This document shows, in pieces, positions 1,044 to 19,452 of a stretch of 48,669 nt of DNA. Below the pieces are notes generated by a model, which saw only the letters and a program-made list of their open reading frames with translations, made no database searches and was not told where the DNA came from. The DNA is taken from positions 1-48,669 of the IMG/VR virus record IMGVR_UViG_3300033412_000368. The stretch is one strand, 5' to 3'. This stretch comes from a virus. Lineage: Duplodnaviria; Caudoviricetes. Position 1 is the first letter of the stretch, and each line of letters begins with the position of its first letter. The translations under genes and the position numbers were made by a program.

Positions 1044-1769
1044 ATGACTAATACTAAATTAAAGATTATAACCCAAGAAGAATTAGATAAGGTTCTTAGT
1101 GATCATAAGACTTGGTTAGATTCTGATGGGGATAAAGGGACTAGGGCTGATTTATCTTATTCTAATTTATCTTATTCTAATTTATCTTATTCTAATTTAT
1201 CTGGGTCTGATTTATCTTATTCTTATTTATCAAGGACTAATTTATCTAATTCTAATTTATCTAACTCTAATTTATCTTATTCTATTTTATATTGGGCTGA
1301 TTTATCTGATTCTGATTTATCTAAGATTGATTTATCTTATTCTAATTTATCTTATTCTAATTTATCTTATTCTAATTTATCTTATTCTAATTTATCTTAT
1401 TCTAATTTATCTGGGTCTGATTTATCTAATTCTAATTTATCTAATTCTAATTTATCTTATTCTATTTTATCTTATTCTAATTTATCTTATTCTAATTTAT
1501 CTAGGTCTGATTTAACTGGGGCTAATTTAACTAATGTTAATTTAACTGGGGCTAATACTTCCACTATAATAGGTAAAAGAATTATTACATTTCAGGGTAA
1601 TAAACACTTTGCTTATTATGTTGATGGATATATTAAGATAGGGTGTGAATATCATACCTTAGACTATTGGATTAAGAATTATGAGAGGATTGGTACTGAG
1701 GCTGAGTATAGTTCTGAGGATATTGAGTCTTATGGTAATTGGATTAAGAGTATTAAAACTGAGGAATAA
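1044..1769 (+). CDS. Pentapeptide-repeat protein, copy 1 (28 repeats)
   Basis: 34-aa conserved N-cap, [SAT][ND]L[ST]x repeats, 67-aa conserved C-domain with IGCEYH..DYW. Confidence 0.9.
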   Translation: MTNTKLKIITQEELDKVLSDHKTWLDSDGDKGTRADLSYSNLSYSNLSYSNLSGSDLSYSYLSRTNLSNSNLSNSNLSYSILYWADLSDSDLSKIDLSYSNLSYSNLSYSNLSYSNLSYSNLSGSDLSNSNLSNSNLSYSILSYSNLSYSNLSRSDLTGANLTNVNLTGANTSTIIGKRIITFQGNKHFAYYVDGYIKIGCEYHTLDYWIKNYERIGTEAEYSSEDIESYGNWIKSIKTEE

Positions 1770-1772
1770 ATA

Positions 1773-2288
1773 ATGACTAATACTAAATTGAAGACTATAA
1801 CCCAAGAGGAATTAGACAAGGTTCTTAGTGATCATAAGACTTGGTTAGATTCTCATGGGACTAGGGGGACTAGGGCTGATTTATCTCTTACTGATTTATC
1901 TAAGATGGATTTATCTTATTTTGATTTATATAAGATGGATTTATCTTATTCTATTTTATCTTATACTGATTTATCTTATACTGATTTATCTAATTCTTAT
2001 TTATTTAAATCTGATTTATCTCATTCTGATTTATCTAATTCTGATTTATCTGGGGCTGATTTAACTGGGGCTAATATCTCTAATATAATAGGTAAAAGAA
2101 TTATTACATTTCAGGGTAATAAACACTTTGCTTATTATGTTGATGGATATATTAAGATAGGGTGTGAATATCATACCTTAGACTATTGGATTAAGAACTA
2201 TGAGAGGATTGGTACTGAGGCTGAGTATAGTTCTGAGGATATTGAGTCTTATGGTAATTGGATTAAGAGTATTAAAACTGAGGATTAG
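1773..2288 (+). CDS. Pentapeptide-repeat protein, copy 2 (14 repeats)
   Basis: Same N-cap and C-domain as copy 1; in tandem with it. Confidence 0.9.
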   Translation: MTNTKLKTITQEELDKVLSDHKTWLDSHGTRGTRADLSLTDLSKMDLSYFDLYKMDLSYSILSYTDLSYTDLSNSYLFKSDLSHSDLSNSDLSGADLTGANISNIIGKRIITFQGNKHFAYYVDGYIKIGCEYHTLDYWIKNYERIGTEAEYSSEDIESYGNWIKSIKTED

Positions 2289-2334
2289 ATTAATTAAATT
2301 TAAGATTTTTAAATTAAACGCATTGAATAATTAT

Positions 2335-2362
2335 TTGACAAAAATTATTAAAATACTATACT
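2335..2362 (+). promoter_or_regulatory. Sigma70-like promoter
   Basis: TTGACA-16 nt-TATACT in an intergenic region. Confidence 0.55.
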
Positions 2363-2516
2363 TATATTAAGAATAATAAAGTTGTAAGAGGGTAAAAACC
2401 TTGTGTGAGAAATAAAATGATATTCACTATATGTTGTATCGGTATATTTTTAGTATTAAGACAAAATGCAGTAGAGGAAATGAAATCTTATACTAAAAAG
2501 CCAAGGAGGAATTATA

Positions 2517-2723
2517 ATGAAAACGTATATAATAGAGAGTATAAAATACCCAATAGAAATTATATTCGCTAATAATTCGAAAAAAGCTTTAAAACAATAT
2601 GCAAAAGATTATGGATTTAAAAATATTAAGGATTTAGAAAAGGATTGTGAAAAATCGTTTAATTTATTAGATGATATCCATAGAATAATTCGAATTGAGA
2701 GATTATGTAAATCTAATCATTAA
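2517..2723 (+). CDS. Hypothetical protein
   Basis: 68-aa ORF with AAGGAG RBS. Confidence 0.6.
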   Translation: MKTYIIESIKYPIEIIFANNSKKALKQYAKDYGFKNIKDLEKDCEKSFNLLDDIHRIIRIERLCKSNH

Positions 2724-2752
2724 TAAGAAGCCCCTTAAAGGGGTTTTATTTT
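2723..2752. terminator. Probable bidirectional intrinsic terminator
   Basis: aagcccct-taa-aggggttt hairpin with A-rich and T-rich flanks, between convergent ORFs. Confidence 0.6.
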
Positions 2753-2923
2753 ATATATTAAATCATTTATTTTAAGGAGCTCTTTTATTATTTTTTCTCT
2801 ATCGGTAATTAAATCAGTTTCAAAGATATCATTTTGATGGGATAAGGTGTGTGTTCTTATATCCCCAATATCCTCTATAATTCTACCTTCTCCGGTTCCT
2901 ATACTATCTGGTTGATATTTCAT
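2735..2923 (-). CDS. Hypothetical protein, lone reverse gene in the early arm
   Basis: 62-aa ORF with AGGAG RBS on the - strand, ending in the terminator. Confidence 0.55.
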   Translation of the reverse strand: MKYQPDSIGTGEGRIIEDIGDIRTHTLSHQNDIFETDLITDREKIIKELLKINDLIYKIKPL

Positions 2924-2975
2924 AATAATCTCCTATATTTATAGTATAGTATATAGATTTAAATTTTGTTCTATC

Positions 2976-2998
2976 TTTACTATTTATTTACAATAAAT
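2976..2998. promoter_or_regulatory. Second copy of the 23-nt palindromic operator-like repeat
   Basis: Identical to 607-629; lies in a divergent intergenic region. Confidence 0.45.
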
Positions 2999-3135
2999 AA
3001 GAATTCTTATCTTGAAAAATTTTTATTTGTTATAGTTATAAAGATCTCCTTTCTTTTACATATTTTTTACATTCTCTTTCTTAATAAATTTATAATTAAT
3101 AGTCTAAACTATAAATAAACATTAAAGGAGAAATA

Positions 3136-3372
3136 ATGAAAACTTTATTAATAAGAGATATCGAAAGATATCTTAAAAGAGAAAAGAGTCGCTATAAAGA
3201 AGAATACTGGCCATATTATGAATTATGGTCAGCAGTTATTATTGATGCTGTTCGAGATACAACTATTAACAATTATAAAGAAGAATCAATGATTAATTTA
3301 TGTGATATGTTAGGTATTGATTCTGAGTTTATTATTGAATCTTGTAAAAAACAATTAAGGAGAGTAAAATGA
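3136..3372 (+). CDS. Hypothetical protein
   Basis: AAGGAG RBS; overlaps the start of the next gene. Confidence 0.65.
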   Translation: MKTLLIRDIERYLKREKSRYKEEYWPYYELWSAVIIDAVRDTTINNYKEESMINLCDMLGIDSEFIIESCKKQLRRVK

Positions 3373-3602
3373 GTAAATATAAAGATTTAGTTCTTGAAGG
3401 TTCTATGACTGTGAATCTAGGTAAAAATGTAAAATTAGGTGATTTACTTTCTATTACTGAAAAAGAAATTATAAAAATGGTAATTAATAAATGTAAGAGA
3501 AATCAATCAATTTGTGCTAAAGCTCTGGGGATAAATAGAGGTACATTAAGGACTAAGCTTAGAAAACATTTTGGTAATGAGTATTTCAGAGGAATAAAAT
3601 AG
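3369..3602 (+). CDS. Fis/NinH-like HTH DNA-binding protein
   Basis: [20 protein letters not shown] closely matches the Fis HTH ([20 protein letters not shown]). Confidence 0.8.
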   Translation: [77 protein letters not shown]

Positions 3603-5272
3603 TGGGGGATTGGTTAAATAAAAATCTTTCTTGTTTTGAATGTGGTAGCTCAGATGCTATGCAAGAGTCTGAGCACCATTTTAAATGTTTTAGTTGTAAT
3701 AAAACATTTCTTAAGAAAAATTATTCTCAAACTAATAATATAAGGTATAGTATGAATTATAAAACTAATTTAATTGATAAAGGAGAATATTATGATCTTA
3801 AAACTCGCGGAAATATTACAAAAAAAACTTGTCAAAAGTATGGAATAACGTGCAGCAGATATACTGGTACTTTTGGGCATGGTGAAAATCAACATTATTT
3901 AAATAATGAACCTATTTATATATTTAATTATTATAAAAATAATGAAATTATTAAGCAAAAATTAAGACCAGTAAATAAAAAAAATTATAAAATTTTAGGA
4001 GATTCATCATTTAAAGAATTTTTTGGGCAAAATATTTTTAAGATTGATTCTAATAGAATTTTAGTTATTACTGAAGGAGAATTTGAAGCTGCAGTTATTT
4101 ATCAAGAGGCTGGATTTAATGCTGTTAGTTTACCAAATGGCATTTCTTCTTTAATAAGCTGTATAAAAAATAATTTTGATTATATTTTTGGATGGAAATA
4201 TATAATTATTGCTGTTGATAATGATGAACCGTCTCAAAAAGAAGTAAATAAATTTTTATTATCAGATTTAGTTAATAAATTAGGGCCCGGAAAAATAAGA
4301 ATAGTAAAATGGCCATTAAAAGATGCTAATGAATTACTAATACAAAATCGTTCTCCTGATATAAAAAAAGCATTGTGGGATGCTGAAGAATATAGACCAA
4401 AAGATTTATTTAAAGCATCCGATTTAATAGAATCAGCATTAATAAAACCAGACCCAGGGATTAATACCCCTTGGCCATCTTTAACACGTGCTATATCAGG
4501 ATGGAGATCAAATACAATAATTACAATAGCAGGAGCGGACGGTATTGGAAAATCAGAATTAAAAGATGAAATTATTTTTAATTTAATAAAAAATGGTCAT
4601 TCAACGTGGGTATGGTCTGTAGAGGAAGAGGGAGAAGAATTGATACGAAGACAAGCGGGAAAATATCTTGATTTACCTCTTCATATTCCTGATATTAAAT
4701 GGGATATTGATAAAATAAAAAATGCAATGATGAAGATAGGGGATAATTTGATTATTTGGAAACCAGAAACAGTAATGACAACAGACGATTTATTGAATCG
4801 AATGCAATATGTTTCAGTTGCAAATAATGTTAAATATTTTATTATTGATCATTTAAAAGGTATTGACAGTCAAATGACTGATATTAATAATTCTATGGCC
4901 AAGTTTTTATCAGATTTAAAATTATTTTGTAAAACATATAAAACGACAGTTATTTTACTTTCACATGTTGCTAAAGATAAGAAACAAGGTAGAGTTGGAA
5001 AAGATGATGAATCATGGAATCGAGGAAGAATCCCAACAAAAGAAAATATTTATGGTTCATCCGCTATTGCAGCTTGGAGTGATATAATAATTGTATTATC
5101 TCGAAATGTTGAATCTGATAATAGTGATATTGCTTGTGTGACTTTATTATCTATTCTAAAGAATAGATTGATGGGGAATCGTGGTCAAAAAAAAATTTTT
5201 ACTAAATATATTGAAGATACGGGGCGTATAATAGAGATAGAACCTATTGATTATAGTGGAAGTATTGAATGA
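3602..5272 (+). CDS. T7 gp4-like primase-helicase
   Basis: Zn finger CFECGSSDA..CFSC, TOPRIM ITEGEFEA and DND, Walker A GADGIGKS, Walker B IIDHL. Confidence 0.92.
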   Translation: MGDWLNKNLSCFECGSSDAMQESEHHFKCFSCNKTFLKKNYSQTNNIRYSMNYKTNLIDKGEYYDLKTRGNITKKTCQKYGITCSRYTGTFGHGENQHYLNNEPIYIFNYYKNNEIIKQKLRPVNKKNYKILGDSSFKEFFGQNIFKIDSNRILVITEGEFEAAVIYQEAGFNAVSLPNGISSLISCIKNNFDYIFGWKYIIIAVDNDEPSQKEVNKFLLSDLVNKLGPGKIRIVKWPLKDANELLIQNRSPDIKKALWDAEEYRPKDLFKASDLIESALIKPDPGINTPWPSLTRAISGWRSNTIITIAGADGIGKSELKDEIIFNLIKNGHSTWVWSVEEEGEELIRRQAGKYLDLPLHIPDIKWDIDKIKNAMMKIGDNLIIWKPETVMTTDDLLNRMQYVSVANNVKYFIIDHLKGIDSQMTDINNSMAKFLSDLKLFCKTYKTTVILLSHVAKDKKQGRVGKDDESWNRGRIPTKENIYGSSAIAAWSDIIIVLSRNVESDNSDIACVTLLSILKNRLMGNRGQKKIFTKYIEDTGRIIEIEPIDYSGSIE

Positions 5273-5397
5273 TTAAGAAGTGTTTATTTATAATTTTTTT
5301 TAGTTTGGTTTTATTGAGTTGTGGATTAATATATTTATCAATTAATTTATTTTTTGTTATTTTTAAATTTCAAGAGAAGGAAACCAATAATGACTAA
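5269..5397 (+). CDS. Small membrane protein or lipoprotein (42 aa, not in the ORF track)
   Basis: MIKKCLFIIFFSLVLLSCGLIYLSINLFFVIFKFQEKETNND*; ATGA overlap with the primase stop; lipobox-like LLSC. Confidence 0.45.
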   Translation: MIKKCLFIIFFSLVLLSCGLIYLSINLFFVIFKFQEKETNND

Positions 5398-6148
5398 TAC
5401 TAAATTAAAGACTATAACCCAAGAGGAATTAGATAAGGTTCTTAGTGATCATAAGACTTGGTTAGATTCTCATGGGGATAAAGGGACTAGGGCTGATTTA
5501 TCTCTTACTGATTTATCAAAGTTTGATTTATCTGGGTCTGATTTATCAATGACTAATTTATCTGGGTCTGATTTATCTGATTCTAATTTAGAAATGGCAT
5601 TTTTAACTTATTCAGGAAAAGTGATTGATCCATTTAATATAAAAGAAGAAGATATTTGTTTTATTGATATTGCCCATCATTTATCAAAAATATGTCGCTA
5701 TGGTGGAGCTTTACCTCATAATATAAATTATAGTGTTGCTCAACATTCCCTCCATTTAGTTGAATGGGCTAGGGAAAATAATTATTCTACCTCTTTGCAA
5801 AAACAATTATTATTACATGATGCGGCTGAGACTTATATAGGAGATATGATATCGAGTGTTAAAAAGGGTCTTAATGATTATAAAAAATTAGAATATAAAA
5901 TAGAAATGATTATAAAAAAGAAATATTCTATAATTGATTGTAAGGAAGATATAAATCTTATAAAATTATTAGATAAAAGAATTGTTTTAGATGAGGCAAG
6001 GGCTTTTTTTCAATCATATTATACTATTTTTTCCTCTAGATCAGGAGGTTTAACCCCTCTTGGGTTGAATATTATGATTTCTGATCCTAAAATAATAGAA
6101 CAACAATTTCTTAGAGAAGGGTTTTTATTGTTAGATAATATTTATTAA
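5390..6148 (+). CDS. Truncated pentapeptide cassette (copy 3) fused in frame to an HD-domain 5'-deoxynucleotidase (YfbR/YfdR-like)
   Basis: N-cap plus ~7 repeats at 5390-5593, then from the ATG at 5594: DIAHHLS..CRYGG, YSVAQHS, LLHDAAETYIGD. Confidence 0.8.
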   Translation: MTNTKLKTITQEELDKVLSDHKTWLDSHGDKGTRADLSLTDLSKFDLSGSDLSMTNLSGSDLSDSNLEMAFLTYSGKVIDPFNIKEEDICFIDIAHHLSKICRYGGALPHNINYSVAQHSLHLVEWARENNYSTSLQKQLLLHDAAETYIGDMISSVKKGLNDYKKLEYKIEMIIKKKYSIIDCKEDINLIKLLDKRIVLDEARAFFQSYYTIFSSRSGGLTPLGLNIMISDPKIIEQQFLREGFLLLDNIY

Positions 6149-6169
6149 TTGAGTATTTGGAGATTAATA

Positions 6170-6895
6170 ATGACTAATATTAGATTGAAGACTATAACCC
6201 AAGAAGAATTAGATAAGGTTCTTAGTGATCATAAGACTTGGTTAGAATCTAATGGGACTAAGGGGACTAGGGCTGATTTATCTCTTACTGATTTATCAAA
6301 GTTTGATTTATCTGGGTCTGATTTATCAATGACTAATTTATCTGGGTCTGATTTATCAAGGACTAATTTATCTAATTCTAATTTATCTAACTCTAATTTA
6401 TCTTATTCTATTTTATATTGGGCTGATTTATCTCTTAATGATTTATCTAGGTTTGATTTATCAAGGACTAATTTATCTTATTCTAATTTATCTAGGTCTG
6501 ATTTATTTTATTATGATTTGTCTCTTACTGATTTATTTTATTCTAATTTATCTAATTCTAATTTATCTAATTCTAATTTATCTAATTCTAATTTGTCTAA
6601 TTCAAATTTATATGGAGTTAATTTATCTAATTCTGATTTATATGGGGCTAATTTAACTAAGGTTAATTTAACTGGGGCTAATATCTCTAATATAATAGGT
6701 AAAAGAATCATTACATTTCAGGGTAATAAAGACTTCGCTTATTATGTTGATGGATATATTAAGATAGGGTGTGAATATCATACCTTAGACTATTGGATTA
6801 AGAACTATGAGAGGATTGGTACTGAGGCTGAGTATAGTTCTGAGGATATTGAGTCTTATGGTAATTGGATTAAGAGTATTAAAACTGAGGGTTAG
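6170..6895 (+). CDS. Pentapeptide-repeat protein, copy 4 (28 repeats)
   Basis: Start moved to the ATG at 6170 by homology with the other copies and a GGAG RBS. Confidence 0.9.
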   Translation: MTNIRLKTITQEELDKVLSDHKTWLESNGTKGTRADLSLTDLSKFDLSGSDLSMTNLSGSDLSRTNLSNSNLSNSNLSYSILYWADLSLNDLSRFDLSRTNLSYSNLSRSDLFYYDLSLTDLFYSNLSNSNLSNSNLSNSNLSNSNLYGVNLSNSDLYGANLTKVNLTGANISNIIGKRIITFQGNKDFAYYVDGYIKIGCEYHTLDYWIKNYERIGTEAEYSSEDIESYGNWIKSIKTEG

Positions 6896-6897
6896 AT

Positions 6898-8799: not shown

Positions 8800-8814
8800 G
8801 AAAAAAAAGAATTC

Positions 8815-8855
8815 ACTTGTCACGATTTCATTATCATTTTGTGACAAGTTGTTTT
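8815..8855 (+). terminator. Inverted repeat, possible terminator after the polymerase
   Basis: acttgtcac(8815-8823) pairs with gtgacaagt(8841-8849), followed by tgtttt. Confidence 0.4.
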
Positions 8856-8885
8856 ATAGTTAAAATAAAATATAAGAGGTGATAA

Positions 8886-9238
8886 ATGAAATTAGCTGTT
8901 ATAGGTAGTCGGGGATTTATAAACATGGATCTTCTTTCCATCACATTAATGAAATATTATCCCGATATAACACAGATAATATCGGGAGGAGCAAGAGGTG
9001 CTGATAAATTAGCTAAACATTATGCCCGAGAAAAAATATAAACTATTTAGAATTTCCGGCCGATTGGGAAAATTATGGTAAAAGCGCTGGCTACAGAAGA
9101 AATAGAGATATTATAAATGCATGTGACGAAGTGTTAGCGTTTTGGGACGGCACTAGTAAAGGCACTAAGCATTCGATCGATTTAGCTAATAAATTAAATA
9201 AGATTATTAGAATTGTAAATATAGGTGATAAGAAATGA
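8886..9238 (+). pseudogene. SLOG-family (DUF2493/YspA-like) gene with a 1-nt frameshift
   Basis: MKLAVIGSRGF..ISGGARGAD in one frame and FPADWENYGKSAGYRRN..AFWDGTSKGT in another. The break is in the A6 run at 9031-9036; A7 would restore the frame. Confidence 0.85.
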
Positions 9239-9528
9239 AACAAATTAAATTTGGTAAAAAATATGAAAAAACGATTAATGACATCGATACTAAATTTACA
9301 TTTACCCTCCCGTGTGGAACATTATGGCAGGATCTTTATTCTGGGAAAGTTTATATTAGTTCCTCTTCTTCCGAAAGAATTTATTTAGAGTCCGATGGAC
9401 GTAAACTTTATATTAAAGATTATTCAGATTTATATGATGTAATTAAGCGCCTATATACAGATGATATAATAACCCCTATTGATATGTTTCAATTACCTAA
9501 TTTTAGCGCAAAAGTAAATAAAATGTAA
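9235..9528 (+). CDS. Hypothetical protein
   Basis: 97-aa ORF with ATGA overlap to the upstream gene. Confidence 0.65.
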   Translation: MKQIKFGKKYEKTINDIDTKFTFTLPCGTLWQDLYSGKVYISSSSSERIYLESDGRKLYIKDYSDLYDVIKRLYTDDIITPIDMFQLPNFSAKVNKM

Positions 9529-9614: not shown

Positions 9615-11528
9615 ATGAGGTCATTAAAAGGTCTGAAGGTTAAATATAATGTAGAAAAACCCCCTATTATCGGGATAGAAGAATATATTAAATTATTAAA
9701 TACGGACCCTGCTGTTCGTAGAACCCCATTTGAGAGAATGTTATCAGCCATTGGTGAGCCTGAAGTGATTGATACCTCTAAGAATGTTCGCTTATCAAGA
9801 ATTTTTGGGAATCGTCTTATTAAAAAATATAAACCTTTCAGTGAATTTTATGGGATGGAAGAAGTTGTTGAGAGAATTGTTTCTTATTTTAAATTTGCAG
9901 CCCAGGGTCTTGAAGAATCTAGGCAAATTTTATATTTATTAGGTCCAGTGGGAGGGGGAAAATCTTCAATTGCTGAAAAATTAAAAGAATTAATAGCAAA
10001 AGAACCAGTTTATGTATTAACAGACGAAAATGGTCAAATCTCTCCTGTGTTTGAGACTCCTTTATCTCTTTTATCACCAGAAGATTTTCCAGAAATACCG
10101 AAACGGTATTTTAAGTATCAATTATCACCATGGGGAATTAAAAGATTAGAGGAGTATAATGGTGATATATCACGTTTTAAAGTAGCAAAATTATTTCCTA
10201 ATGAATCAAAACAATATTGTATTAGCAAAACTGAGCCAGGAGATGATAATAATCAAGATATATCAGCCTTAGTTGGAAAGACTAATATTAGAAAATTAGA
10301 ATATTTTGATCAGAATGACCCAGATAGTTATTCTTATAGTGGGGGTCTCAATAAATCAAATCAAGGATTATTAGAGTTTGTTGAAATGTTTAAATCACCA
10401 ATAAAAATCTTACATCCTTTACTGACCGCAACACAGGAAGGAGATTATAATTCAACAGAAGGAATGGCTTCTCTCCCCTTTGAAGGTATAATTTTAGCCC
10501 ATTCCAATGAATCGGAGTGGAATTCTTTTAAAAATGATAATAAAAATGAAGCATTTATAGATAGAGTGTATGTAGTAAAGGTTCCTTATTGTTTACGTGT
10601 TGATGATGAGGTTAAAATTTATGAGAAATTAATAAAAAATTCAGATCTTTGTGACAAACCAATTGCACCTAATACTTTAGATTTACTAGCTAAATTGTTT
10701 ATTTTGACTCGTTTAGAAGAGCCTAAGACTTCAAATATTTTTACAAAATTAAAAGTATATAATGGTGAATCTGTTAAAGAAAAAGATCCATCGGCAAAAT
10801 CCCTTTATGATTATAAAATGCTTAGTTCTAAATTAGAGGGGTTTCGAGGATTGTCAACTCGTCTTGCCCACAAGGTTATTTCGCAAACATATAATTATGA
10901 TACGATGGAAATTGCAGCCAATCCTGTTCATTTATTTATTGTTATTGAACAAATGATTTATAATGAGCATTTAAATGAAAATGATGAATTACGATTTATG
11001 GGATATTTAAATGAATATCTAATTCTTCCATATATTGACTTAATCGGTGATGAGATTCAAAAATGCTATTTAGATAGTTATTCTGAATATGGTCAAAATT
11101 TATTTGATCGTTATATTACTTATGCGGATTACTGGCTTCAAGATCAAGATTATAGAGATCCCGATACTGGGCAATTATTTGACAGAGGAATTCTTTCTTC
11201 AGAATTAGAAAAATTAGAAATACCAGCAGAAATAACTAATAAAAAAGATTTTAGAAATGAGGTAGTTAATTTTTGTTTGCATTATAAAGCTGATCATGGT
11301 GTCTATCCCGATTGGACCTCCTATTCTAAATTAAAATTAGTGATAGAAAAATCAATTTTTGATAAAACAGAAAATTTATTACCAATAATTTCATTTCATA
11401 GTCATAAAAATAAAGATGATTCTAAAAAGCATGTTGATTTTATTAATAGAATGAAGAAAAAGGGTTATACTGAAAAACAAATAAAATTATTGTGTGAATG
11501 GTTTATTCGTTATAAACAATCAGCTTAA
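9615..11528 (+). CDS. prkA: PrkA/YeaG family AAA+ protein (annotated as a Ser kinase)
   Basis: LYLLGPVGGGKSS, KTEPGDDNNQDISALVGK, LLEFVEMFK, LHPLLTATQEG, AHSNESEW; full length; AAGGAGG RBS. Confidence 0.95.
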   Translation: MRSLKGLKVKYNVEKPPIIGIEEYIKLLNTDPAVRRTPFERMLSAIGEPEVIDTSKNVRLSRIFGNRLIKKYKPFSEFYGMEEVVERIVSYFKFAAQGLEESRQILYLLGPVGGGKSSIAEKLKELIAKEPVYVLTDENGQISPVFETPLSLLSPEDFPEIPKRYFKYQLSPWGIKRLEEYNGDISRFKVAKLFPNESKQYCISKTEPGDDNNQDISALVGKTNIRKLEYFDQNDPDSYSYSGGLNKSNQGLLEFVEMFKSPIKILHPLLTATQEGDYNSTEGMASLPFEGIILAHSNESEWNSFKNDNKNEAFIDRVYVVKVPYCLRVDDEVKIYEKLIKNSDLCDKPIAPNTLDLLAKLFILTRLEEPKTSNIFTKLKVYNGESVKEKDPSAKSLYDYKMLSSKLEGFRGLSTRLAHKVISQTYNYDTMEIAANPVHLFIVIEQMIYNEHLNENDELRFMGYLNEYLILPYIDLIGDEIQKCYLDSYSEYGQNLFDRYITYADYWLQDQDYRDPDTGQLFDRGILSSELEKLEIPAEITNKKDFRNEVVNFCLHYKADHGVYPDWTSYSKLKLVIEKSIFDKTENLLPIISFHSHKNKDDSKKHVDFINRMKKKGYTEKQIKLLCEWFIRYKQSA

Positions 11529-11553
11529 TAATTTCAAGAGAAGGAAACCAATA

Positions 11554-12384
11554 ATGACTAATATTGGATTGAAGACTATAACCCAAGAGGAATTAGACAA
11601 GGTTCTTAGTAATCATAAGACTTGGTTAGAATCTAATGGGACTAAAGGGACTAGGGCTGATTTATCTTATACAGATTTATCTGATTCTGATTTATCTAAG
11701 ATTGATTTATCTGGGTCTGATTTATCTTATTCTAATTTATCTTATTCTAATTTATCTGGGTCTGATTTATCTTATTCTTATTTATCTGATACTGATTTAT
11801 CAAAGACTAATTTATCTTATTCTAATTTATCTGGGTCTAATTTATCTAGGGTTAATTTATCTAATTCTATCTTACCTTATTCTGATTTATCTAAATCTGA
11901 TTTATATGGGGCTGATTTATCTTATATTGATTTAGCTGGGTCTGATTTATCTCATTCTGATTTATCTAATTCTAATTTATCTAATTCTAATTTATCTTAT
12001 TCTATTTTATCTTATTCTATCTTACCTTATTCTGATTTATCTCATTCTGATTTATCTGATTCTATCTTATCTCATTCTATCTTATCTCATTCTGATTTAT
12101 CTAATTCTAATTTATCTAATTCTGATTTATCTGGGGCTAATTTAACTAGGGTGAATTTAAATAGGTCTAATATCTCTAATATAATAGGTAAAAGAATCAT
12201 TACATTTCAGGGTAATAAAGACTTCGCTTATTATGTTGATGGATATATTAAGATAGGGTGTGAATATCATACCTTAGACTATTGGATTAAGAACTATGAG
12301 AGGATTGGTACTGAGGCTGAGTATAGCTCTGAGGATATTGAGTCTTATGGTAATTGGATTAAGAGTATTAAAACTGAGGGTTAG
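11554..12384 (+). CDS. Pentapeptide-repeat protein, copy 5 (35 repeats)
   Basis: Start at ATG 11554 by homology with the other copies. Confidence 0.9.
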   Translation: MTNIGLKTITQEELDKVLSNHKTWLESNGTKGTRADLSYTDLSDSDLSKIDLSGSDLSYSNLSYSNLSGSDLSYSYLSDTDLSKTNLSYSNLSGSNLSRVNLSNSILPYSDLSKSDLYGADLSYIDLAGSDLSHSDLSNSNLSNSNLSYSILSYSILPYSDLSHSDLSDSILSHSILSHSDLSNSNLSNSDLSGANLTRVNLNRSNISNIIGKRIITFQGNKDFAYYVDGYIKIGCEYHTLDYWIKNYERIGTEAEYSSEDIESYGNWIKSIKTEG

Positions 12385-12407
12385 ATATGAAACTGGAGGA
12401 ATTATAA

Positions 12408-12686
12408 ATGAATAAATATATTTGTAGTGGAATAGTTGGACATGATCCGGATTTAATTGATAAAGGTTTAAAATTTTCAGTGGCAGTTAAGCAAGATGAT
12501 AAGTCTACTCTTTGGATTAGAGTATTGTGTTTTGGAAAAATTGCTGATAATTGTAAAGAAATTGTAAAGAAAAGTATGAAGGTTTTAGTGGAAGGGAAAC
12601 TTATAATGTCTTCTAATGATAAAATGTCTTTATTAGCTGATAGAGTCGAATTTTTAACTTGGAAAGAGGAAACCAATAATGACTAA
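12408..12686 (+). CDS. ssb: Short SSB (OB fold) without an acidic tail
   Basis: MNK...G.VG.DP, FSVAV, W..V..FGKIA, KVLVEGKL, typical of bacterial-type SSB. Confidence 0.75.
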   Translation: MNKYICSGIVGHDPDLIDKGLKFSVAVKQDDKSTLWIRVLCFGKIADNCKEIVKKSMKVLVEGKLIMSSNDKMSLLADRVEFLTWKEETNND

Positions 12687-13254
12687 TACTAAATTAAAGA
12701 CTATAACCAAAAGAAAATTAGATAAGGTTCTTAGTAATCATAAGACTTGGTTAGATTCTTATGGGACTAAGGGGACTAGGGCTGATTTATCTTATACTGA
12801 TTTATCTAATACTGATTTATCTCTTACTGATTTATTTTATTCTAATTTATCTAATTCTAATTTATCTCATTCTGATTTATATGGGTCTAATTTATCTAAT
12901 TCTGATTTATCTGGGGCTAATTTAACTAATTCTAATTTATCTTATTCTATTTTATCTTATTCTATCTTACCTTATTCTGATTTATCTAATTCTGATTTAT
13001 CTGGGGCTAATTTAACTAATATTAATTTAACTAAGGCTAATATCTCTAATATAATAGGTAAAAGAATCATTACATTTCAGGGTAATAAAGACTTCGCTTA
13101 TTATGTTGATGGATATATTAAGATAGGGTGTGAATATCATACCTTAGACTATTGGATTAAGAACTATGAGAGGATTGGTACTGAGGCTGAGTATAGCTCT
13201 GAGGATATTGAGTCTTATGGTAATTGGATTAAGAGTATTAAAACTGAGGGTTAG
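12679..13254 (+). CDS. Pentapeptide-repeat protein, copy 6 (18 repeats)
   Basis: Same cassette as the other copies. Confidence 0.9.
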   Translation: MTNTKLKTITKRKLDKVLSNHKTWLDSYGTKGTRADLSYTDLSNTDLSLTDLFYSNLSNSNLSHSDLYGSNLSNSDLSGANLTNSNLSYSILSYSILPYSDLSNSDLSGANLTNINLTKANISNIIGKRIITFQGNKDFAYYVDGYIKIGCEYHTLDYWIKNYERIGTEAEYSSEDIESYGNWIKSIKTEG

Positions 13255-13256
13255 AT

Positions 13257-14411
13257 ATGACTATTATAATCGATCGGAGGAATACCCGCTCATCAAAAAA
13301 TTGTTCTAATCGGACTCGTTTTATTCATCGATATAAAAATTATATAAAGAAAACTTTAGATGATTGTGTTGAAAAAAAGAAAATTAAAGATTTAACTGAT
13401 TCAGTAGCTATCCCAATTAATTGGGATATTCGAGATATAGATATGGGATTTAATAGATCAACGGGAACTTATGATTATATCGGAACTGGGAATAAAGAGT
13501 ATGAGAAAGGGGATCGATTCTATAAAGATAATGATAATCCAGAGTCTTCAATTTATGAGGATGAGGAATCTGACCAGGGAGATTATACTTTTACTTTAAC
13601 TAAAGAAGAATTCTTTGATCTCTATTTCGATGATATGGAACTTCCAGATTTTATTAAAACTTCCATGATGAATATTTGTAAATCCTCTTATAAACGTGCA
13701 GGTTATATAAAAAATGGGGTGATTTCGAGATTAGATATTCTTAAAACATTACAAATGTCGCTTGCTAGACGATTGTCATGCCCTAAAGATAAAAACCCCC
13801 CTTTTTTAGATGATATTGATCTTCGTTTTAAGAATATTATTTCTGTTCCTCAACCAATGTTAAAAGCAGTTATGTTCTGTATGATGGATGTATCTGGATC
13901 AATGACTGAACATCATAGTTATTTATCAAAGAAATTTTTTATATTATTATATTTATTTCTTTGTAAAAATTATACTTCAGTTGATATTCGTTTTATTCGT
14001 TATCATCATAGTGCCAAGGATGTTTCGGAAGAAGAATTTTTCAATTCCCATCAAACAGGGGGAACACAGGTATTACCCGCTTTGCAATTAATTAATGAGA
14101 TTATAAAGAATGAATATTCAATAAATACATATAATATTTATATTGCTCATACGAGTGATGGAGATATTGGGAACTTGGATGATACTCTTATTGAGTATTT
14201 AGATCATAATTTAATTAATAAATTGCAATATTATGCTTATCTTCAAGTTCAAGATGCTTATCAATATGGAGATTTTAAAGAGGGGAATGAGGGGCTTTAT
14301 GGTATTTTGAAAAGTTCTTCTTATTGGATGACAAAATTAAATATTGAAACGGCTGTTGATTTACAAGATATTTTCCCAGTTTTAAAAAATTTATTTAAGA
14401 GGAATAAATAA
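13257..14411 (+). CDS. yeaH: YeaH/YhbH (DUF444) VWA-domain protein
   Basis: IIDRR..NR.RFI.RYK, PFLDDIDLRF, KAVMFCMMDVSGSM (MIDAS), TGGT, SDGD. Confidence 0.92.
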   Translation: MTIIIDRRNTRSSKNCSNRTRFIHRYKNYIKKTLDDCVEKKKIKDLTDSVAIPINWDIRDIDMGFNRSTGTYDYIGTGNKEYEKGDRFYKDNDNPESSIYEDEESDQGDYTFTLTKEEFFDLYFDDMELPDFIKTSMMNICKSSYKRAGYIKNGVISRLDILKTLQMSLARRLSCPKDKNPPFLDDIDLRFKNIISVPQPMLKAVMFCMMDVSGSMTEHHSYLSKKFFILLYLFLCKNYTSVDIRFIRYHHSAKDVSEEEFFNSHQTGGTQVLPALQLINEIIKNEYSINTYNIYIAHTSDGDIGNLDDTLIEYLDHNLINKLQYYAYLQVQDAYQYGDFKEGNEGLYGILKSSSYWMTKLNIETAVDLQDIFPVLKNLFKRNK

Positions 14412-15391
14412 TGACTAATATTAGATTGAAGATTCTAACCCAAGAAGAATTAGAAAAGGTTCTTAGTGATCATAAGACTTGGTTAGAATCTAATGGGACT
14501 AAGGGGACTAGGGCTGATTTATCTTATACAGATTTATCTAAGATTAATCTATCTTATACTGATTTATCTGGGTCTAATCTATTAAGGGCTAATTTATTTA
14601 ATTCTGATTTATCTTATACTGATTTATCTGGGTCTAATCTATTAAGGGCTAATTTATCTAATTCTGATTTATCTTATACTGATTTATCTGGGTCTAATCT
14701 ATTAAGGGCTAATTTATCTAATTCTGATTTATCTGGGTCTGATTTATCTAATACTGATTTATCTTATACTGATTTATCTGGGTCTAATCTATTAAGGGCT
14801 AATTTATTTAATTCTGATTTATCTTATACAGATTTATCTAAGATTAATCTATCTTATACTGATTTATCTGGGTCTAATCTATTAAGGGCTAATTTATTTA
14901 ATTCTGATTTATCGGGGTCTAATTTATCTAATTCTAATTTATATGGAGTTAATTTATCTAATTCTAATTTATCTTGTATTGATTTATCTGGGTCTAATTT
15001 ATCTAATTCTAATTTATTTAATTCTAATTTATCTGATTCTAATTTATCTAGGTCTGATTTATCTAATTCTAATTTATCTTATTCTAATTTATCTAGGTCT
15101 GATTTATCTTATTCTGATTTATCTAGGTCTGATTTATATGGGGCTAATTTAACTAATGTTAATTTAACTGGGGCTAATATCTCTAATATAATAGGTAAAA
15201 GAATCATTACATTTCAGGGTAATAAAGACTTCGCTTATTATGTTGATGGATATATTAAGATAGGGTGTGAATATCATACCTTAGACTATTGGATTAAGAA
15301 TTATGAGAGGATTGGTACTGAGGCTGAGTATAGTTCTGAGGATATTGAGTCTTATGGTAATTGGATTAAGAGTATTAAAACTAAGGATTAG
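14411..15391 (+). CDS. Pentapeptide-repeat protein, copy 7 (45 repeats)
   Basis: Same cassette; internal higher-order repeat TDLSGSNLLRANL(F/S)NSDLS present 5 times. Confidence 0.9.
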   Translation: MTNIRLKILTQEELEKVLSDHKTWLESNGTKGTRADLSYTDLSKINLSYTDLSGSNLLRANLFNSDLSYTDLSGSNLLRANLSNSDLSYTDLSGSNLLRANLSNSDLSGSDLSNTDLSYTDLSGSNLLRANLFNSDLSYTDLSKINLSYTDLSGSNLLRANLFNSDLSGSNLSNSNLYGVNLSNSNLSCIDLSGSNLSNSNLFNSNLSDSNLSRSDLSNSNLSYSNLSRSDLSYSDLSRSDLYGANLTNVNLTGANISNIIGKRIITFQGNKDFAYYVDGYIKIGCEYHTLDYWIKNYERIGTEAEYSSEDIESYGNWIKSIKTKD

Positions 15392-15417
15392 ATATAATTA
15401 TTGGATAGGAGAGAATT

Positions 15418-16851
15418 ATGCAAAATCCTCTTTTTATTGGATATGACTGGGATATAAATTTAATTGAAAAATTATGGAAAAGAATTGATTTTTATGGAAA
15501 AAAAATGGGGTTGGATTATTACCCCCCTAAATTTGAAGTTATAACATCAGAACAAATGATAGATGCCTATTCTAGCAATGGAATGCCAATTTATTATAAT
15601 CATTGGTCATTTGGTAAAAATTTTATTAAGACTATGGATAATTATAAAAAGGGAAAAATGGGGTTGGCTTATGAAATGGTTATTAATTCTAATCCTTGTT
15701 TGGCGTATCTAATGGAGGATAATACGGCAACATTAACTGCTATGGTAATTTCTCATGCTAGTTGTGGGCATTCTCATTTTTTCAAAAATAATTATTTATT
15801 TAAAAAAAATACTAACCCAGAGTCAATAATTAATTTATTAGAGTCAACTAAAAAATATATCCTTAAATGTGAAGAACAGTATGGGTTTGAGAGAGTTGAA
15901 AATCTTATTAGTTGTATTCATTTTTTATCTAAATTTGGAATAAATAAATATCCTCGATGTAATAAAACTAATGATAAATTAATTAGAGAACGAGAAGAAT
16001 ATTATAGACAGAGTTATGATCCTATTATCAACAATCATCTTTTTTCATTAAATAATCAGGATATTAAAAAAGAAAATAATTTATTGATTGAAAATATAGA
16101 CGAAGAAAATTTAATAAAGTTTATAATTGATCATTCTTTAAGTTTAGAGATTTGGCAGAAAAATATTCTTAATTTAATAATGAGTATTGAACAATATTTT
16201 TATCCGCAGAGTCAAACTAAAATAATGAATGAAGGATTTGCTTGTTTTATTCATTATCACATAATGGAGGAACTTTATAAAAACGGTGATATTGATGAAG
16301 GGTCCTACATTGAATTTATTAAACATCACACTGATGTTTGTTATCAACCTGAATTAACCTCTATTAACCCTTATGCCTTAGGATTTGAAATTTTTATGGA
16401 TATTAAACGCTCTTGTTTATATCCCGATGAGGAAGATTATATTCATCTATCAACATCAGGGAGTAAAGATTGGATGGTTGAAATTAAAAATGTTGTGAAG
16501 TATTATAAAGATGAGAGTTTTATTACTCAATTTTTATCACCAAAAGTAATAAGAAAATTGGGATTATTCTCATATCACGATTCTAGTGAGTTTCCTTATG
16601 TTGAAATTACTGGTACCCAAGATGATTGTGATATTATGACAATAAGAGAACAATTGTGCAATTATTTGAAAAGAGAGAATTTTATACCTGATTTAGAAAT
16701 TATTTCTTTTAATAAAGTAAATAATCGTGTTATTATTAAGTATAATAAATTTAAAAATAGAGAAATTTATAATTTTGATATTTTTGAAGAAGTTTTTAAT
16801 GAACTAACAGGTTTAACTGTTAATTTAGAGGAGAGTGAGAATGGCTTATAA
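15418..16851 (+). CDS. spoVR: SpoVR/YcgB family protein
   Basis: GMPIYYNHWSFGK, GLAYEMVINSNPCLAYLMEDN, HASCGHSHFFKNNYLF, QTKIMNEGFA, INPYALGF, DESFITQFLSPK. Confidence 0.93.
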   Translation: MQNPLFIGYDWDINLIEKLWKRIDFYGKKMGLDYYPPKFEVITSEQMIDAYSSNGMPIYYNHWSFGKNFIKTMDNYKKGKMGLAYEMVINSNPCLAYLMEDNTATLTAMVISHASCGHSHFFKNNYLFKKNTNPESIINLLESTKKYILKCEEQYGFERVENLISCIHFLSKFGINKYPRCNKTNDKLIREREEYYRQSYDPIINNHLFSLNNQDIKKENNLLIENIDEENLIKFIIDHSLSLEIWQKNILNLIMSIEQYFYPQSQTKIMNEGFACFIHYHIMEELYKNGDIDEGSYIEFIKHHTDVCYQPELTSINPYALGFEIFMDIKRSCLYPDEEDYIHLSTSGSKDWMVEIKNVVKYYKDESFITQFLSPKVIRKLGLFSYHDSSEFPYVEITGTQDDCDIMTIREQLCNYLKRENFIPDLEIISFNKVNNRVIIKYNKFKNREIYNFDIFEEVFNELTGLTVNLEESENGL

Positions 16852-17362
16852 TGTGAAAGTAATTAAAAAAGAAGATGATAAAGTTGGTAAAAGTCAAAAG
16901 GGAGAATATCGTTATACCTCTTTAACAATTGATTATGAAGGGAAAATTTCTGAAAGGAAAATTCTATCAACATCATTTCAAAGATATCCTGATCTAAAAG
17001 GGGAATTAGAAAAAGTAAAAGATGGTATGACTATTGGGATAGAAACGCAACAAAATGGGAATTATAAAGAGATTAGTAAAATTGTTTTATCACCAATTAC
17101 TCATAGTAAAACTATTATTCCTTCTGAATCTAGGGATATTTCTATACAAGTAATGAATGCAATGAATAATGCATGTCAGACATTAGGGGAAGGAATGGTG
17201 ACAGTCAATCAGATTGAACAAAGATCCTGGGAATTAGTTTTATTGGGGGAGAGACTCAAAAAACGATTAGCTGATGGAGATCATCTAAAAGATAATATAT
17301 CTCCTCCGAATGATCCATCTGTTAATACCGGTTCATATGAAGAAGAGGAAGTTCCTTTTTGA
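16841..17362 (+). CDS. Putative phage ssDNA-binding/recombination protein
   Basis: Acidic tail YEEEEVPF; lies just before the exonuclease; GAGGAG RBS. Confidence 0.55.
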   Translation: MAYNVKVIKKEDDKVGKSQKGEYRYTSLTIDYEGKISERKILSTSFQRYPDLKGELEKVKDGMTIGIETQQNGNYKEISKIVLSPITHSKTIIPSESRDISIQVMNAMNNACQTLGEGMVTVNQIEQRSWELVLLGERLKKRLADGDHLKDNISPPNDPSVNTGSYEEEEVPF

Positions 17363-17388
17363 CCCTTTTAATTTTGGAGAACTGAATT

Positions 17389-18390
17389 ATGTTAATAATT
17401 GATGGAGATCTTTATGTTTATAAAGCTGGATTTGCCTATCGGGGCAAAGAGATTGGTCATAAATTAATTAATAGGAGGACCTCAGAAATTGTTGACCTTG
17501 GTAATGTATCTCTGATAAAAGCTAAGAAATTTTGTAAAGAAAATGGGTATGTCAATTCTGATTGGAAATTAATTTATTATAATAATCCTTTTCCTTTACA
17601 TTTTATATTGGGTAAATTAGATGAGATTATTCAGTCACTATTGAATAAATTTGCGAATCACGAATATCAAATGTTTATAACCTCTTCGGATGTGAGTAAT
17701 TATCGTTTTAACATTGCTACAATAACCCCTTATAAAGGTAGTAGAAGGAAGTGTGTAAAATGTTTTGAACGTTGTAAATCTGAATTTGATAGAAATAAAA
17801 AGGTAATTTTAATTTGTAAAAATTGTGGGGAGGTTGATAAGGAAGCAACTGTCCAGGATAAGCCTGAATATTATGAGGAAATTAGGGATCATCTGATTCA
17901 GCGATGGAATGCAGAATTAGTGCATGGTCAAGAGGCGGATGACGCTGTTAGTATCCTTGCAAAAAAATTATCTAATGATATTGATAGTAATCCTATAATG
18001 GTTCATATTGATAAAGATATTAATAATACTCCTGGAGTTCATTATAATCCTGATAAAGAATTGTTATATACAATTGATTATTCAACATCTATTAAAAATT
18101 TTTATACTCAATTTTTATTAGGGGATCGGATTGATTGTATTCCTGGAGTAATTGGAATTGGACCAGTTTTAGCCGAAGAAATATTTAAAGAGTGTTTTGT
18201 TTCTTCTGATTATGAACAGATTATTATGGAAATATATCAAGGTGAATATATTTTTAGTAAAAGACCACCAAAAAATAGGATGAATTTAACTCCTAACGAG
18301 GCATATCAAAGATTAGTGGAAATAGGGCAATTATTATATATTAGACAAGAGGAGAATGAATTATGGAGACCAACAATACCGCAACCTTAG
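17389..18390 (+). CDS. 5'-3' exonuclease (T7 gp6-like) with a Zn-finger insertion
   Basis: IDGD, YKGSR, EADD, DKD, GD..D.IPGVIGIG; insertion CVKC...CKNC. Confidence 0.88.
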   Translation: MLIIDGDLYVYKAGFAYRGKEIGHKLINRRTSEIVDLGNVSLIKAKKFCKENGYVNSDWKLIYYNNPFPLHFILGKLDEIIQSLLNKFANHEYQMFITSSDVSNYRFNIATITPYKGSRRKCVKCFERCKSEFDRNKKVILICKNCGEVDKEATVQDKPEYYEEIRDHLIQRWNAELVHGQEADDAVSILAKKLSNDIDSNPIMVHIDKDINNTPGVHYNPDKELLYTIDYSTSIKNFYTQFLLGDRIDCIPGVIGIGPVLAEEIFKECFVSSDYEQIIMEIYQGEYIFSKRPPKNRMNLTPNEAYQRLVEIGQLLYIRQEENELWRPTIPQP

Positions 18391-18512
18391 AAGAGATGGA
18401 AATTCCAGATGATTGGAATGATGATTGGGATCTCTGGTCAGAATCTCTTTATGATAATGAAGAATGGTGGGAGCAATTTGATAAAGATAATTATTTGAAG
18501 GAGTTAGAATGA
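18363..18512 (+). CDS. Small, very acidic, Trp-rich protein (49 aa, not in the ORF track)
   Basis: METNNTATLEEMEIPDDWNDDWDLWSESLYDNEEWWEQFDKDNYLKELE*; GGAG RBS; ATGA overlap with the next gene. Confidence 0.6.
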   Translation: METNNTATLEEMEIPDDWNDDWDLWSESLYDNEEWWEQFDKDNYLKELE

Positions 18513-18874
18513 CATCACCTCAATATGCTAAACAATTAGGTCGAGAGGGACAGAAGAAAGTAAAAGAGATTTTACTTCGACGATTCCCACATCTTGAAAA
18601 TGATGATATTTATTCTAGACCAATGGGATCTCCTGGAGAGGATTTAATGTTATCTCCTAGAGCGAGAAAAGTACTTCCTTTTGATATTGAGGTGAAATAT
18701 GGGAAACAAATTAATTTAATTAGAGCTTGTCAACAGGCATCAGTAGAGTCTAGAAATAAAAAATACACCCCTCTTTCTGTTGGATGTTATCGATTAGAAA
18801 AGCCTCACCAGTGGTATTGTTGTTTGAAATTGGAGGATTTTTTAAAACTTTTAGTTTGTAGGGTAGGAGATTAA
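18509..18874 (+). CDS. PD-(D/E)xK nuclease, Holliday-junction resolvase-like
   Basis: AK..GR..Q, GEDL..., DIEVK pattern. Confidence 0.7.
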   Translation: MTSPQYAKQLGREGQKKVKEILLRRFPHLENDDIYSRPMGSPGEDLMLSPRARKVLPFDIEVKYGKQINLIRACQQASVESRNKKYTPLSVGCYRLEKPHQWYCCLKLEDFLKLLVCRVGD

Positions 18875-18876
18875 TA

Positions 18877-19452
18877 ATGACTAATATTGGATTGAAGACT
18901 ATAACCCAAGAAGAATTAGATAAGGTTCTTAGTAATCATGAGACTTGGTTAGATTCTCATGGGACTAAGGGGACTAGGGCTGATTTATCTTATACAGATT
19001 TATCTAATTCTGATTTATATGATTCTAATTTATCTCATTCTGATTTATCTAGGACTAATTTATCAATGACTAATTTATATAATACTAATTTATCTAATTC
19101 TAATTTATTTAATTCTAATTTATCTGATTCTAATTTATCTAGGTCTGATTTATCTAATTCTAATTTATCTTATTCTAATTTATCTAGGTCTGATTTATCT
19201 TATTCTGATTTATCTAGGTCTGATTTATATGGGGCTAATATTTCCAATATAATAGGTAAAAGAATCATTACATTTCAGGGTAATAAAGACTTCGCTTATT
19301 ATGTTGATGGATATATTAAGATAGGGTGTGAATATCATACCTTAGACTATTGGATTAAGAACTATGAGAGGATTGGTACTGAGGCTGAGTATAGTTCTGA
19401 GGATATTGAGTCTTATGGTAATTGGATTAAGAGTATTAAAACTGAGGGTTAG
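18877..19452 (+). CDS. Pentapeptide-repeat protein, copy 8 (18 repeats)
   Basis: Same cassette as the other copies. Confidence 0.9.
   Translation: MTNIGLKTITQEELDKVLSNHETWLDSHGTKGTRADLSYTDLSNSDLYDSNLSHSDLSRTNLSMTNLYNTNLSNSNLFNSNLSDSNLSRSDLSNSNLSYSNLSRSDLSYSDLSRSDLYGANISNIIGKRIITFQGNKDFAYYVDGYIKIGCEYHTLDYWIKNYERIGTEAEYSSEDIESYGNWIKSIKTEG

Follow-up and report, generated by a model that had tools for sequence, protein, structure and literature searches.

The 48,669-nt window considered here, the whole of the single virus record IMGVR_UViG_3300033412_000368 in IMG/VR, is the complete genome of a phage in which one early gene, encoding a pentapeptide-repeat protein, is present as seven full copies and one half copy. 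In order, the copies contain arrays of 28, 14, 6, 28, 35, 18, 45 and 18 units, and each full copy consists of a 34-codon N-terminal cap (N-cap), the array of 15-nt units and a 67-codon C-terminal domain (C-domain). Together, the copies occupy 5,133 nt (10.5% of the genome). They are mosaics of one another, and they can be read, with a confidence that we place near the midpoint, as a gene accordion whose copies are dispersed, evolve in concert and encode a host-interaction (counter-defence) protein. The arrangement calls for explanation: eight copies fill a tenth of a small genome and stand around the polymerase and exonuclease genes as direct repeats. To our knowledge, small phages rarely keep near-identical paralogues.

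All eight copies are open reading frames (ORFs), and chance likeness is excluded because in blastn comparisons the caps match one another with E values of 1e-33 or better and the C-domains with 1e-93 or better, far below the best non-copy matches (only E 0.004 and 0.002). No further copies or decayed remnants were found in the genome by blastn with the caps and C-domains. A preliminary description of this DNA, made from its letters, had given the eight starts, the unit counts of the full copies and the lengths of cap and C-domain exactly as they appear in Table 1, and its estimate of ~5.1 kb, about 10% of the genome, agrees with the computed length. It had also called the copy at 5390 truncated. 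This is right for the cap-and-array part, in which the array is shortened to 6 full units and three codons, but not for the gene as a whole, which has an intact 252-aa reading frame that continues into an HD 5ʹ-deoxynucleotidase, a 5ʹ-deoxynucleoside monophosphate phosphatase. The HD gene has an ATG at 5594, in front of which no separate ribosome-binding site (RBS) is visible.

Table 1. Copies of the pentapeptide-repeat gene in the window, with two example features inside copies. L numbers are other assemblies that hold the same array.
Feature	Position	Strand	Description
Copy 1	1044..1769	+	28 units, 241 aa; tandem with copy 2, 3 nt between them; array also in L003
Copy 2	1773..2288	+	14 units, 171 aa; array in L003 identical except for one substitution
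Half copy	5390..6148	+	cap and 6 units fused in frame to the HD 5ʹ-deoxynucleotidase; also in L003 and L036
Copy 4	6170..6895	+	28 units, 241 aa; DNA polymerase ATG 2 nt past the stop; also in L003 and L036
Copy 5	11554..12384	+	35 units, 276 aa; follows prkA and precedes a 6-codon mini-ORF and the single-strand binding protein (SSB) gene; partly covered by Logan contigs
Copy 6	12679..13254	+	18 units, 191 aa; overlaps the SSB stop; yeaH ATG 2 nt past the stop; partly covered by Logan contigs
Copy 7	14411..15391	+	45 units, 326 aa; follows yeaH (DUF444) and precedes spoVR; array also in L002
Copy 8	18877..19452	+	18 units, 191 aa; between a RusA-like resolvase gene and an M48 peptidase gene (ATG 2 nt past the stop); structure modelled; array also in L001
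Example C-domain	19249..19452	+	IGC...W...IG...Y...I..Y; predicted four strands and two helices; last codons hold the GAGG RBS for the next gene
Example sigma70-like site	6668..6696	+	TTAACT-17-TATAAT at the array/C-domain junction; compatible with chance

Copy number and segment order across assemblies

The number of copies is genuine. Four other assemblies, L001, L002, L003 and L036, contain six of the eight arrays between them, identical save for one substitution; these assemblies may stem from one site and thus bear on the assembly rather than on population variety. In Logan contigs, the contig of the shared C-domain has a depth of 227 against 34-52 for unique pieces in run X2 and of 51 against 7-12 in run X3, a ratio of ~4-7x that is a rough figure and fits five or more copies. 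Moreover, for each segment, separate Logan contigs reach from the end of a C-domain to the next cap. Logan contigs, which contain no raw reads, cannot phase these joins, and the uncovered bins of runs X1 and X2, which were read to 65% and 28%, respectively, were left out of account. Other joints found in the Logan contigs are explained by copies or segments beyond the compared stretch. The idea that the copy number is an artefact of assembly draws on two facts, that assemblies disagree on the joins at the C-domain and that C-domain variants shift between copies from assembly to assembly. Against the distinctness of every array, the recurrence of six of them, the depth of the C-domain contig and the contigs that lead into each next cap, it is highly improbable.

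What is less secure is the order of the segments. L002 connects copy 14411 to the M48 gene, which in the window follows copy 18877, and L003 connects copy 6170 to yeaH; the two joins are incompatible with one complete genome. We read them as short-read ambiguity at the 204-nt repeat, the other reading being that they are real rearranged molecules. In run X3, the segments skipped by these joins have depths of 7.3-8.7, near those of their flanks (8-11.7), so deletion forms are not dominant there. The order in the window is supported by a distant relative, in which prkA, yeaH, spoVR and, further on, a metallophosphoesterase gene follow one another as they do in the window, an agreement that just 3 of the 24 possible orders of the segments would give. 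The risk of artefact, which lies in segment order and not in copy number, is small though not negligible.

Mosaicism, insertion sites and probable route of dispersal

The C-domains are 96.1-100% identical, with a synonymous divergence (pS) of 0.055 and a replacement divergence (pN) of 0.009. The N-caps are 87.3-97.1% identical (pS 0.097, pN 0.082), and 14 of their 34 residues vary. Such an alignment had been suggested in the preliminary description, which held both ends to be nearly identical at the DNA level; the statement fits the C-domain and does not extend to the cap. Its broader view, a recently amplified or homogenised family of variable-length rods, is supported by the low pS, by the confident beta-helix model described below and by the four-gamete test, which fails for 55 of the 105 pairs formed by 15 informative sites in the caps and C-domains of the seven full copies. 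Furthermore, the closest relative of a copy switches along the gene. Copy 5390 combines the 24-nt leader of 11554 with a cap 97% identical to that of 1044 and 86 nt of the 6170 array, and copy 14411 has its leader as in 1773, its cap as in 6170 and 155 nt of array as in 18877. Exact array blocks of 155, 86, 83, 67 and 62 nt connect different pairs of copies, and at least four whole units are exactly common to 4 of the 28 array pairs, compared with none in 300 shuffles. This mosaic pattern, as read from the sequences, points to repeated ectopic recombination or gene conversion. The variable sites of the C-domain comprise 6 synonymous and 3 replacement sites, a purifying signal (p = 0.002). Within the arrays, the central, inward Leu has a pN of 0, and the outward fifth residue has a pN of 0.60-0.64 versus a pS of 0.28-0.37.

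Every copy lies between genes and on the early strand. AATA precedes all eight copies and 8 of 42 other genes, three leader types occur among the copies (one matching the primase gene's own leader), and six of the seven full copies end in TTAG-AT. In four of the seven, an ATG begins 2 nt past the stop codon, namely that of the polymerase gene, yeaH, the M48 gene or a six-codon mini-ORF before SSB, so that the last codons of the copy supply the GAGG RBS. This mini-ORF (12387-12407), which lies between copy 11554 and SSB and has a stop that overlaps the SSB start, resembles, possibly by chance, the first part of a gene (4651) that stands between pentapeptide copies of L101. Copies 1044 and 1773 form the sole tandem pair, and the remaining gaps measure 294-4,658 nt.

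Sharp ends common to all copies might suggest an enzyme-driven element, either an insertion sequence or miniature inverted-repeat element or the target of a diversity-generating retroelement. This explanation is largely refuted. Neither terminal inverted repeats nor target duplications above chance were found among the copies; the best inverted match is 6-7 nt, which 33-73% of random pairs reach, and the best direct match outside the tandem pair is 5-7 nt. The preliminary description had spoken of a cassette without its own transposase, and Pfam scans of the 56 distinct ORFs indeed show none, nor an integrase or reverse transcriptase. No homing endonuclease was found, an Rfam scan gave no match, and variation is not confined to adenines (8 of 20 variable sites in the caps, 0 of 9 in the C-domains). 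A host-encoded enzyme could have acted in trans, but an enzyme-driven origin as such is scarcely credible. Genes of the recombination type are present in the phage itself and encode a 5ʹ-3ʹ exonuclease, SSB and a RusA-like resolvase.

The dispersal is specific to this lineage, because relatives have no copy inside the prkA-yeaH-spoVR module. In the distant relative L004/L005 (PrkA 57% identical, virion genes homologous), the module is contiguous, with 102 nt between prkA and yeaH and 3 nt between yeaH and spoVR in L004. The one pentapeptide gene of L004 has the same end domain and lies directly before the Fis-like gene, where it is cut by the contig start; the 29.6-kb L005 record has no pentapeptide copy. 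Likewise, no copy interrupts the module at any of 20 PrkA loci, 16 of these loci being very distant (28-31% identity).

The simplest route of dispersal would be recombination at microhomologies comprising the RBS and start codon, filtered for harmless insertions. Under the favoured reading, the gene would first have duplicated, an event still visible in the tandem pair 1044/1773, and would then have spread to new gene junctions through such recombination, with only non-disruptive, translation-coupled insertions surviving. Ongoing gene conversion would then keep the ends alike, and slippage and unequal exchange would reshuffle the 15-nt units. Taken jointly, these three steps are probable. A fourth step, selection for dose and surface variety against a host factor, would be slightly favoured once the first three are granted. 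It is preferred by analogy with T4 tifA, a counter-defence gene amplified by recombination at 6-10-bp microhomologies (PMC9391042), and with SegB-driven gene amplification, a further counter-defence precedent (PMC13096335).

The main rival holds that the gene is a tolerated, self-spreading coding cassette, similar to the PeSLs of T4-type phages. One copy would be functional and the others harmless and hard to lose, the repeat-rich gene would recombine easily, and each insertion would equip the following gene with an RBS and possibly also with a sigma70 promoter. This is consistent with the RBS placed at copy ends for the next ATG, with an HD gene whose translation apparently needs the fused cap, with expansions elsewhere that lack the C-domain, and with copies in three other viral contigs (G001, G006 and G011) whose 3ʹ ends likewise hold the start signal of the next gene. 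PeSLs of RB49 and phi1 also shuffle genes, through recombination near Shine-Dalgarno and -10 boxes and without an integrase, according to PMC2839356. Furthermore, all seven full copies have TATAAT at the array/C-domain junction, and in five of them TTAACT precedes it by 17 nt (a 10/12 sigma70 match). However, promoter-like sites are no commoner than in shuffles (139 versus 137 +/- 12) and TATAAT occurs 47 times in the 17.9 kb outside the copies, so that the junction site is a lead only, compatible with chance. Seven terminator-like sites were found, none within a full copy. A tolerated cassette might also be expected to leave decayed copies, none of which was found in the genome, and a load of 10.5% of the genome, with 200-nt direct repeats bracketing polymerase and exonuclease, should be costly if it brings no benefit. 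We regard this explanation as the less probable one, though it retains a considerable share of our doubt.

A further proposal, which is doubtful, makes the gene a transposase-free mobile coding cassette in its own right. Equipped with promoter and RBS, it would insert at translation starts and swap modules of the replication arm, and its arrays would recombine into counter-defence rods. The swappable modules would be polymerase-prkA, SSB, yeaH and spoVR-exonuclease, reordered or exchanged via the identical end domains. If this were true, the L002 and L003 joins would be real molecules, and the multi-copy viral contigs described below (11 of 164) would reflect a general way of phage genome evolution that has not been described before. 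Alternatively, the extra copies might be stuffer DNA that holds the genome in the packaging range after other losses. Capsid size does limit genome length in T4 amplification experiments (PMC9391042), but a stuffer leaves unexplained the intact frames, the exact junction placement and the amplification of the same family in unrelated phages, and is improbable.

Predicted protein fold, family members and proposed role

All eight copies match PF00805 of Pfam (27-192 bits versus a cut-off of 20.2), and Leu occupies position 3 in 185 of the 192 units. The AlphaFold2 model of copy 18877, a prediction likewise suggested in the preliminary description, was built with 67 sequences and reached a predicted local distance difference test score (pLDDT) of 96.7. 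It consists of a cap helix, an unbroken beta-helix of the predicted right-handed quadrilateral type and an end domain of four strands and two helices. The closest solved structures are loop-free Rfr proteins, with Z scores of 18.1-16.2 in the top seven rows (synthetic beta1 18.1, Alr5209 17.6; the effector NleL is among these rows). A homodimer prediction for the same copy scored 0.23 against a mark of 0.42 and is counted for neither side.

The cap motif H..W..G.RA[DN]L and the end domain I.IGC...W...IG...Y...I..Y place the copies in a phage family built of cap, rod and end domain. In the end domain, G150, C151 and W159 are invariant in 67 of 67 aligned sequences, and 565 relatives were found among 1.84 billion representatives. 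The best 150 of these 565, sorted by regular expression, comprise 124 pentapeptide proteins, 2 hexapeptide proteins, 10 stand-alone domains or fragments and 14 others. In the ESM Atlas, the same predicted fold stands behind hexapeptide and ydcK solenoids (TM 0.78-0.85) in clusters that are 63-100% viral, and the same cap and rod also bear other end domains, such as PF19062. Cap, rod and end domain are thus modular, and the rod has the look of a stalk that can be exchanged. A Schizotequatrovirus protein (L031, 3671-4207) has the same end domain behind a different, Gly-rich five-residue repeat. No Pfam, PHROG or NCBIfam family matched the end domain. One PADLOC row that named it REase_II (E 0.004) was set aside, its matches in the whole-model search were weak (Z 4.7-5.9; PSRP-3/Ycf65, SsgA-like, Pur-alpha and a designed protein) and too low for a fold name, and a single-sequence model of the C-domain alone was poor (pLDDT 55).

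The preliminary description had linked the rods to DNA mimicry on gyrase, which is not supported here; its two other suggestions, anti-defence decoys and a selfish cassette, are each still plausible. A repertoire of Qnr/MfpA-like DNA mimics, directed against host gyrase or DNA-binding defence enzymes, would fit the common Rfr fold (Z 15.1 to MfpA and 12.4 to AhQnr) and the mildly acidic proteins (pI 4.6-5.6), and gyrase-inhibiting phage peptides of other folds exist (PMC10886550). Nevertheless, the Qnr hidden Markov model (HMM) gave 30.3 and 63.7 bits with the two copies scanned, compared with a cut-off of 240, and the MfpA model gave 39.7 bits with the longer copy, compared with 360. Loop-free Rfr proteins are closer in fold, and the arrays are exact multiples of five residues that run without insert or loop through 3.5-11 turns. 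Net charge is -0.18 to -0.57 per unit, within the range of a family whose median is -0.21 (96 homologues). Moreover, the conserved part is the end domain, which solenoids of other repeat types also carry. On these sequence comparisons, membership of the Qnr/MfpA group becomes much less probable and a similar mode of action moderately less so; a repertoire of such mimics is unlikely.

Members of the family are widespread in cultured phages, where a homologue query matched 209 records at 254 places; tblastn of the window's own full protein gave no match there, probably owing to low-complexity masking. Listed Silviavirus records have one to three places each, and Barba phages mostly have one, of variable length. 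In bacterial genomes, no copy was matched by the A1 patterns, and a short HxxWL pattern run over five records did no better than the control. A survey of viral contigs with two cap patterns, the second covering 21 of 64 parts, matched 170 other contigs, 164 of them with a pentapeptide frame. At least two distinct copies are carried by 11 of the 164 and at least three by 5, counts that are lower bounds and include one lineage twice among the 11. These multi-copy cases are mostly clustered, with six copies in 3.8 kb (G003) or five in 2.5 kb (G006); G009 has three copies, and G007 has three with the same end domain. Two of the three copies in the 269-kb contig G001 are 13 kb apart, with last 200 nt that are 98% identical and arrays that differ by four units. 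A 6,351-nt fragment (G011, from L228) holds at least six short cap-plus-array genes of 51-146 aa on both strands, with caps 86-94% identical, and may represent either a stronger expansion or a tangle in the assembly. Of the cases seen, the window is the most extreme, with the most copies, the widest dispersal and the youngest ends. Phages often carry members of this family, and independent amplifications have occurred in several other genomes, so that eight copies are less surprising; the window shows in extreme form what the family as a whole tends to do and does not represent a new class of element. A literature search, whose scope excluded most subscription papers and supplements, found no account of phages with pentapeptide genes in several copies.

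Several points weigh against a gene accordion shaped by a host factor. The host-interaction role is a proposal by analogy, and published accordions are tandem and transient, whereas the copies in the window are dispersed and flank essential genes with direct repeats. The arrays are unchanged between assemblies apart from one substitution, so no fast switching is seen. A close relative with a true empty site, which the preliminary description had suggested looking for, was not found, a primase search giving the same phage or matches of 25-35% only. Cap sites, with 4 synonymous to 19 replacement changes, show a neutral ratio, in which residues conserved in the family are nonetheless spared. The excess of pN over pS in the arrays also affects the inward first position (pN 0.34-0.42, pS 0.08-0.14) and may stem from unit types that are old, not from diversifying selection. 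The open frames and the purifying signal could equally be explained by conversion off one useful copy or by avoided polarity on essential downstream genes. Finally, the copies of G003, G006 and G011 are without the end domain, and amplification therefore does not need the supposed business end.

A large phage family without assigned function multiplies repeatedly in unrelated phages, and the solenoids that bear its end domain are interchangeable. Since amplification is the sign by which known counter-defence genes are recognised, the family is a definite candidate for screens of anti-defence function. The eight variants supplied by nature differ in their rods but little in their ends, and are a ready test set for the roles of rod and end domain.

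Genome setting and comparison with known systems

The genome is complete because assembly L003 connects the window's end to its start and because a 15,431-nt Logan contig, found in two runs, covers positions 1-1096 and continues beyond; by arithmetic, it reaches a tail-gene repeat near 34.3 kb. This perfect 384-nt repeat (33529-34365, 2.2 copies) lies inside a 1,160-aa tail gene, and coordinate arithmetic makes the contig behind L001/L003 384 nt shorter there, through either one unit fewer or a collapsed assembly. The three sequencing runs that hold the phage are labelled soil metagenome, and no RNA data set was among the runs listed as containing it. Up to ~23 kb, the + strand carries the early genes, which include a T7-like primase/helicase, a family A polymerase, SSB, the exonuclease, the RusA-like resolvase, a Fis-like gene and the host-type prkA-yeaH-spoVR module; the virion genes are on the - strand. 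The phage PrkA is 55-60% identical to that of many Beta- and Gammaproteobacteria, which suggests a host in one of these classes without fixing it.

The module occupies 9615-16851, with prkA (YeaG) above the NCBIfam cut-off, and its three genes are grouped in 19 of 20 viral PrkA loci, the 20th of which stops after yeaH. An identical 23-nt AT-rich motif at 607-629 and 2976-2998, upstream of two early gene blocks, is likely an early promoter of the phage; the copy at 607-629 overlaps an 11/12 sigma70 match. An operator-like 8-bp inverted repeat (8816-8848, arms at 8816 and 8841) lies 3ʹ of the polymerase gene, and the run of As just 5ʹ of it has one additional A in two runs. Despite the 49-kb genome, genes for a Fis-like regulator (3369-3602), an HslV-like peptidase (124-579) and a Cpn10-like protein (40949-41356) are present. 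Beside the exonuclease, an uncatalogued 175-aa protein (16835-17362) with weak OB-fold likeness is a candidate second single-strand binding or annealing protein. A weak PHROG row that named the M48 gene HNH (E 4e-5) was overruled by the Pfam M48 match (E 2e-13).

Among known systems, the nearest is the phage family of 'pentapeptide repeat-containing proteins' (PF00805; PHROGs 7713/28697), with members such as LSA2308_00029 and _00013 of Silviavirus, those of Rheinheimera Barba phages, gp51 of Listeria B025 and gp37 of Salmonella g341c. Like them, the copies have a helix cap H..WL...G.RADL, a repeat rod and a small end domain. Unlike its known cases, the window has eight copies in 48.7 kb, with ends 87-100% identical and placed among core replication genes. 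Between the two Silviavirus copies compared, overall identity is 65%, and their end domain is of another version. Proteins of the Qnr/MfpA type share the right-handed quadrilateral beta-helix and the net negative charge, and form dimers through C-terminal helices, with negative surfaces and, in some members, loops, according to PMC10886550. In contrast, the window's copies fall below the HMM cut-offs, are loop-free and variable in length, have an N-terminal helix cap and an unrelated end domain, and are multi-copy in a phage.

PeSL cassettes resemble the copies in being dispersed same-strand repeats at gene boundaries, with expression signals and possible recombination sites. As described in PMC2839356, they are short, non-coding promoter/terminator motifs around dispensable genes, whereas the repeat in the window is a whole coding gene that supplies an RBS, brackets essential genes and has only a putative promoter and no terminator stem-loop. 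Recombination between PeSLs can give mini-circles or reshuffled genomes; the L002 and L003 joins might be a counterpart, but fit ambiguity of assembly just as well. The viral gene accordions, T4 dmd-tifA, the SegB-driven amplification and poxvirus K3L (as cited in PMC9391042), are tandem segmental arrays, transient and with a known target. The copies in the window form no such array, being dispersed, diverged in their repeat and apparently stable, with no homing endonuclease involved so far as found. What they have in common with the accordions is a small non-structural gene that gains copies by recombination without an integrase, in the accordions by way of short microhomologies.

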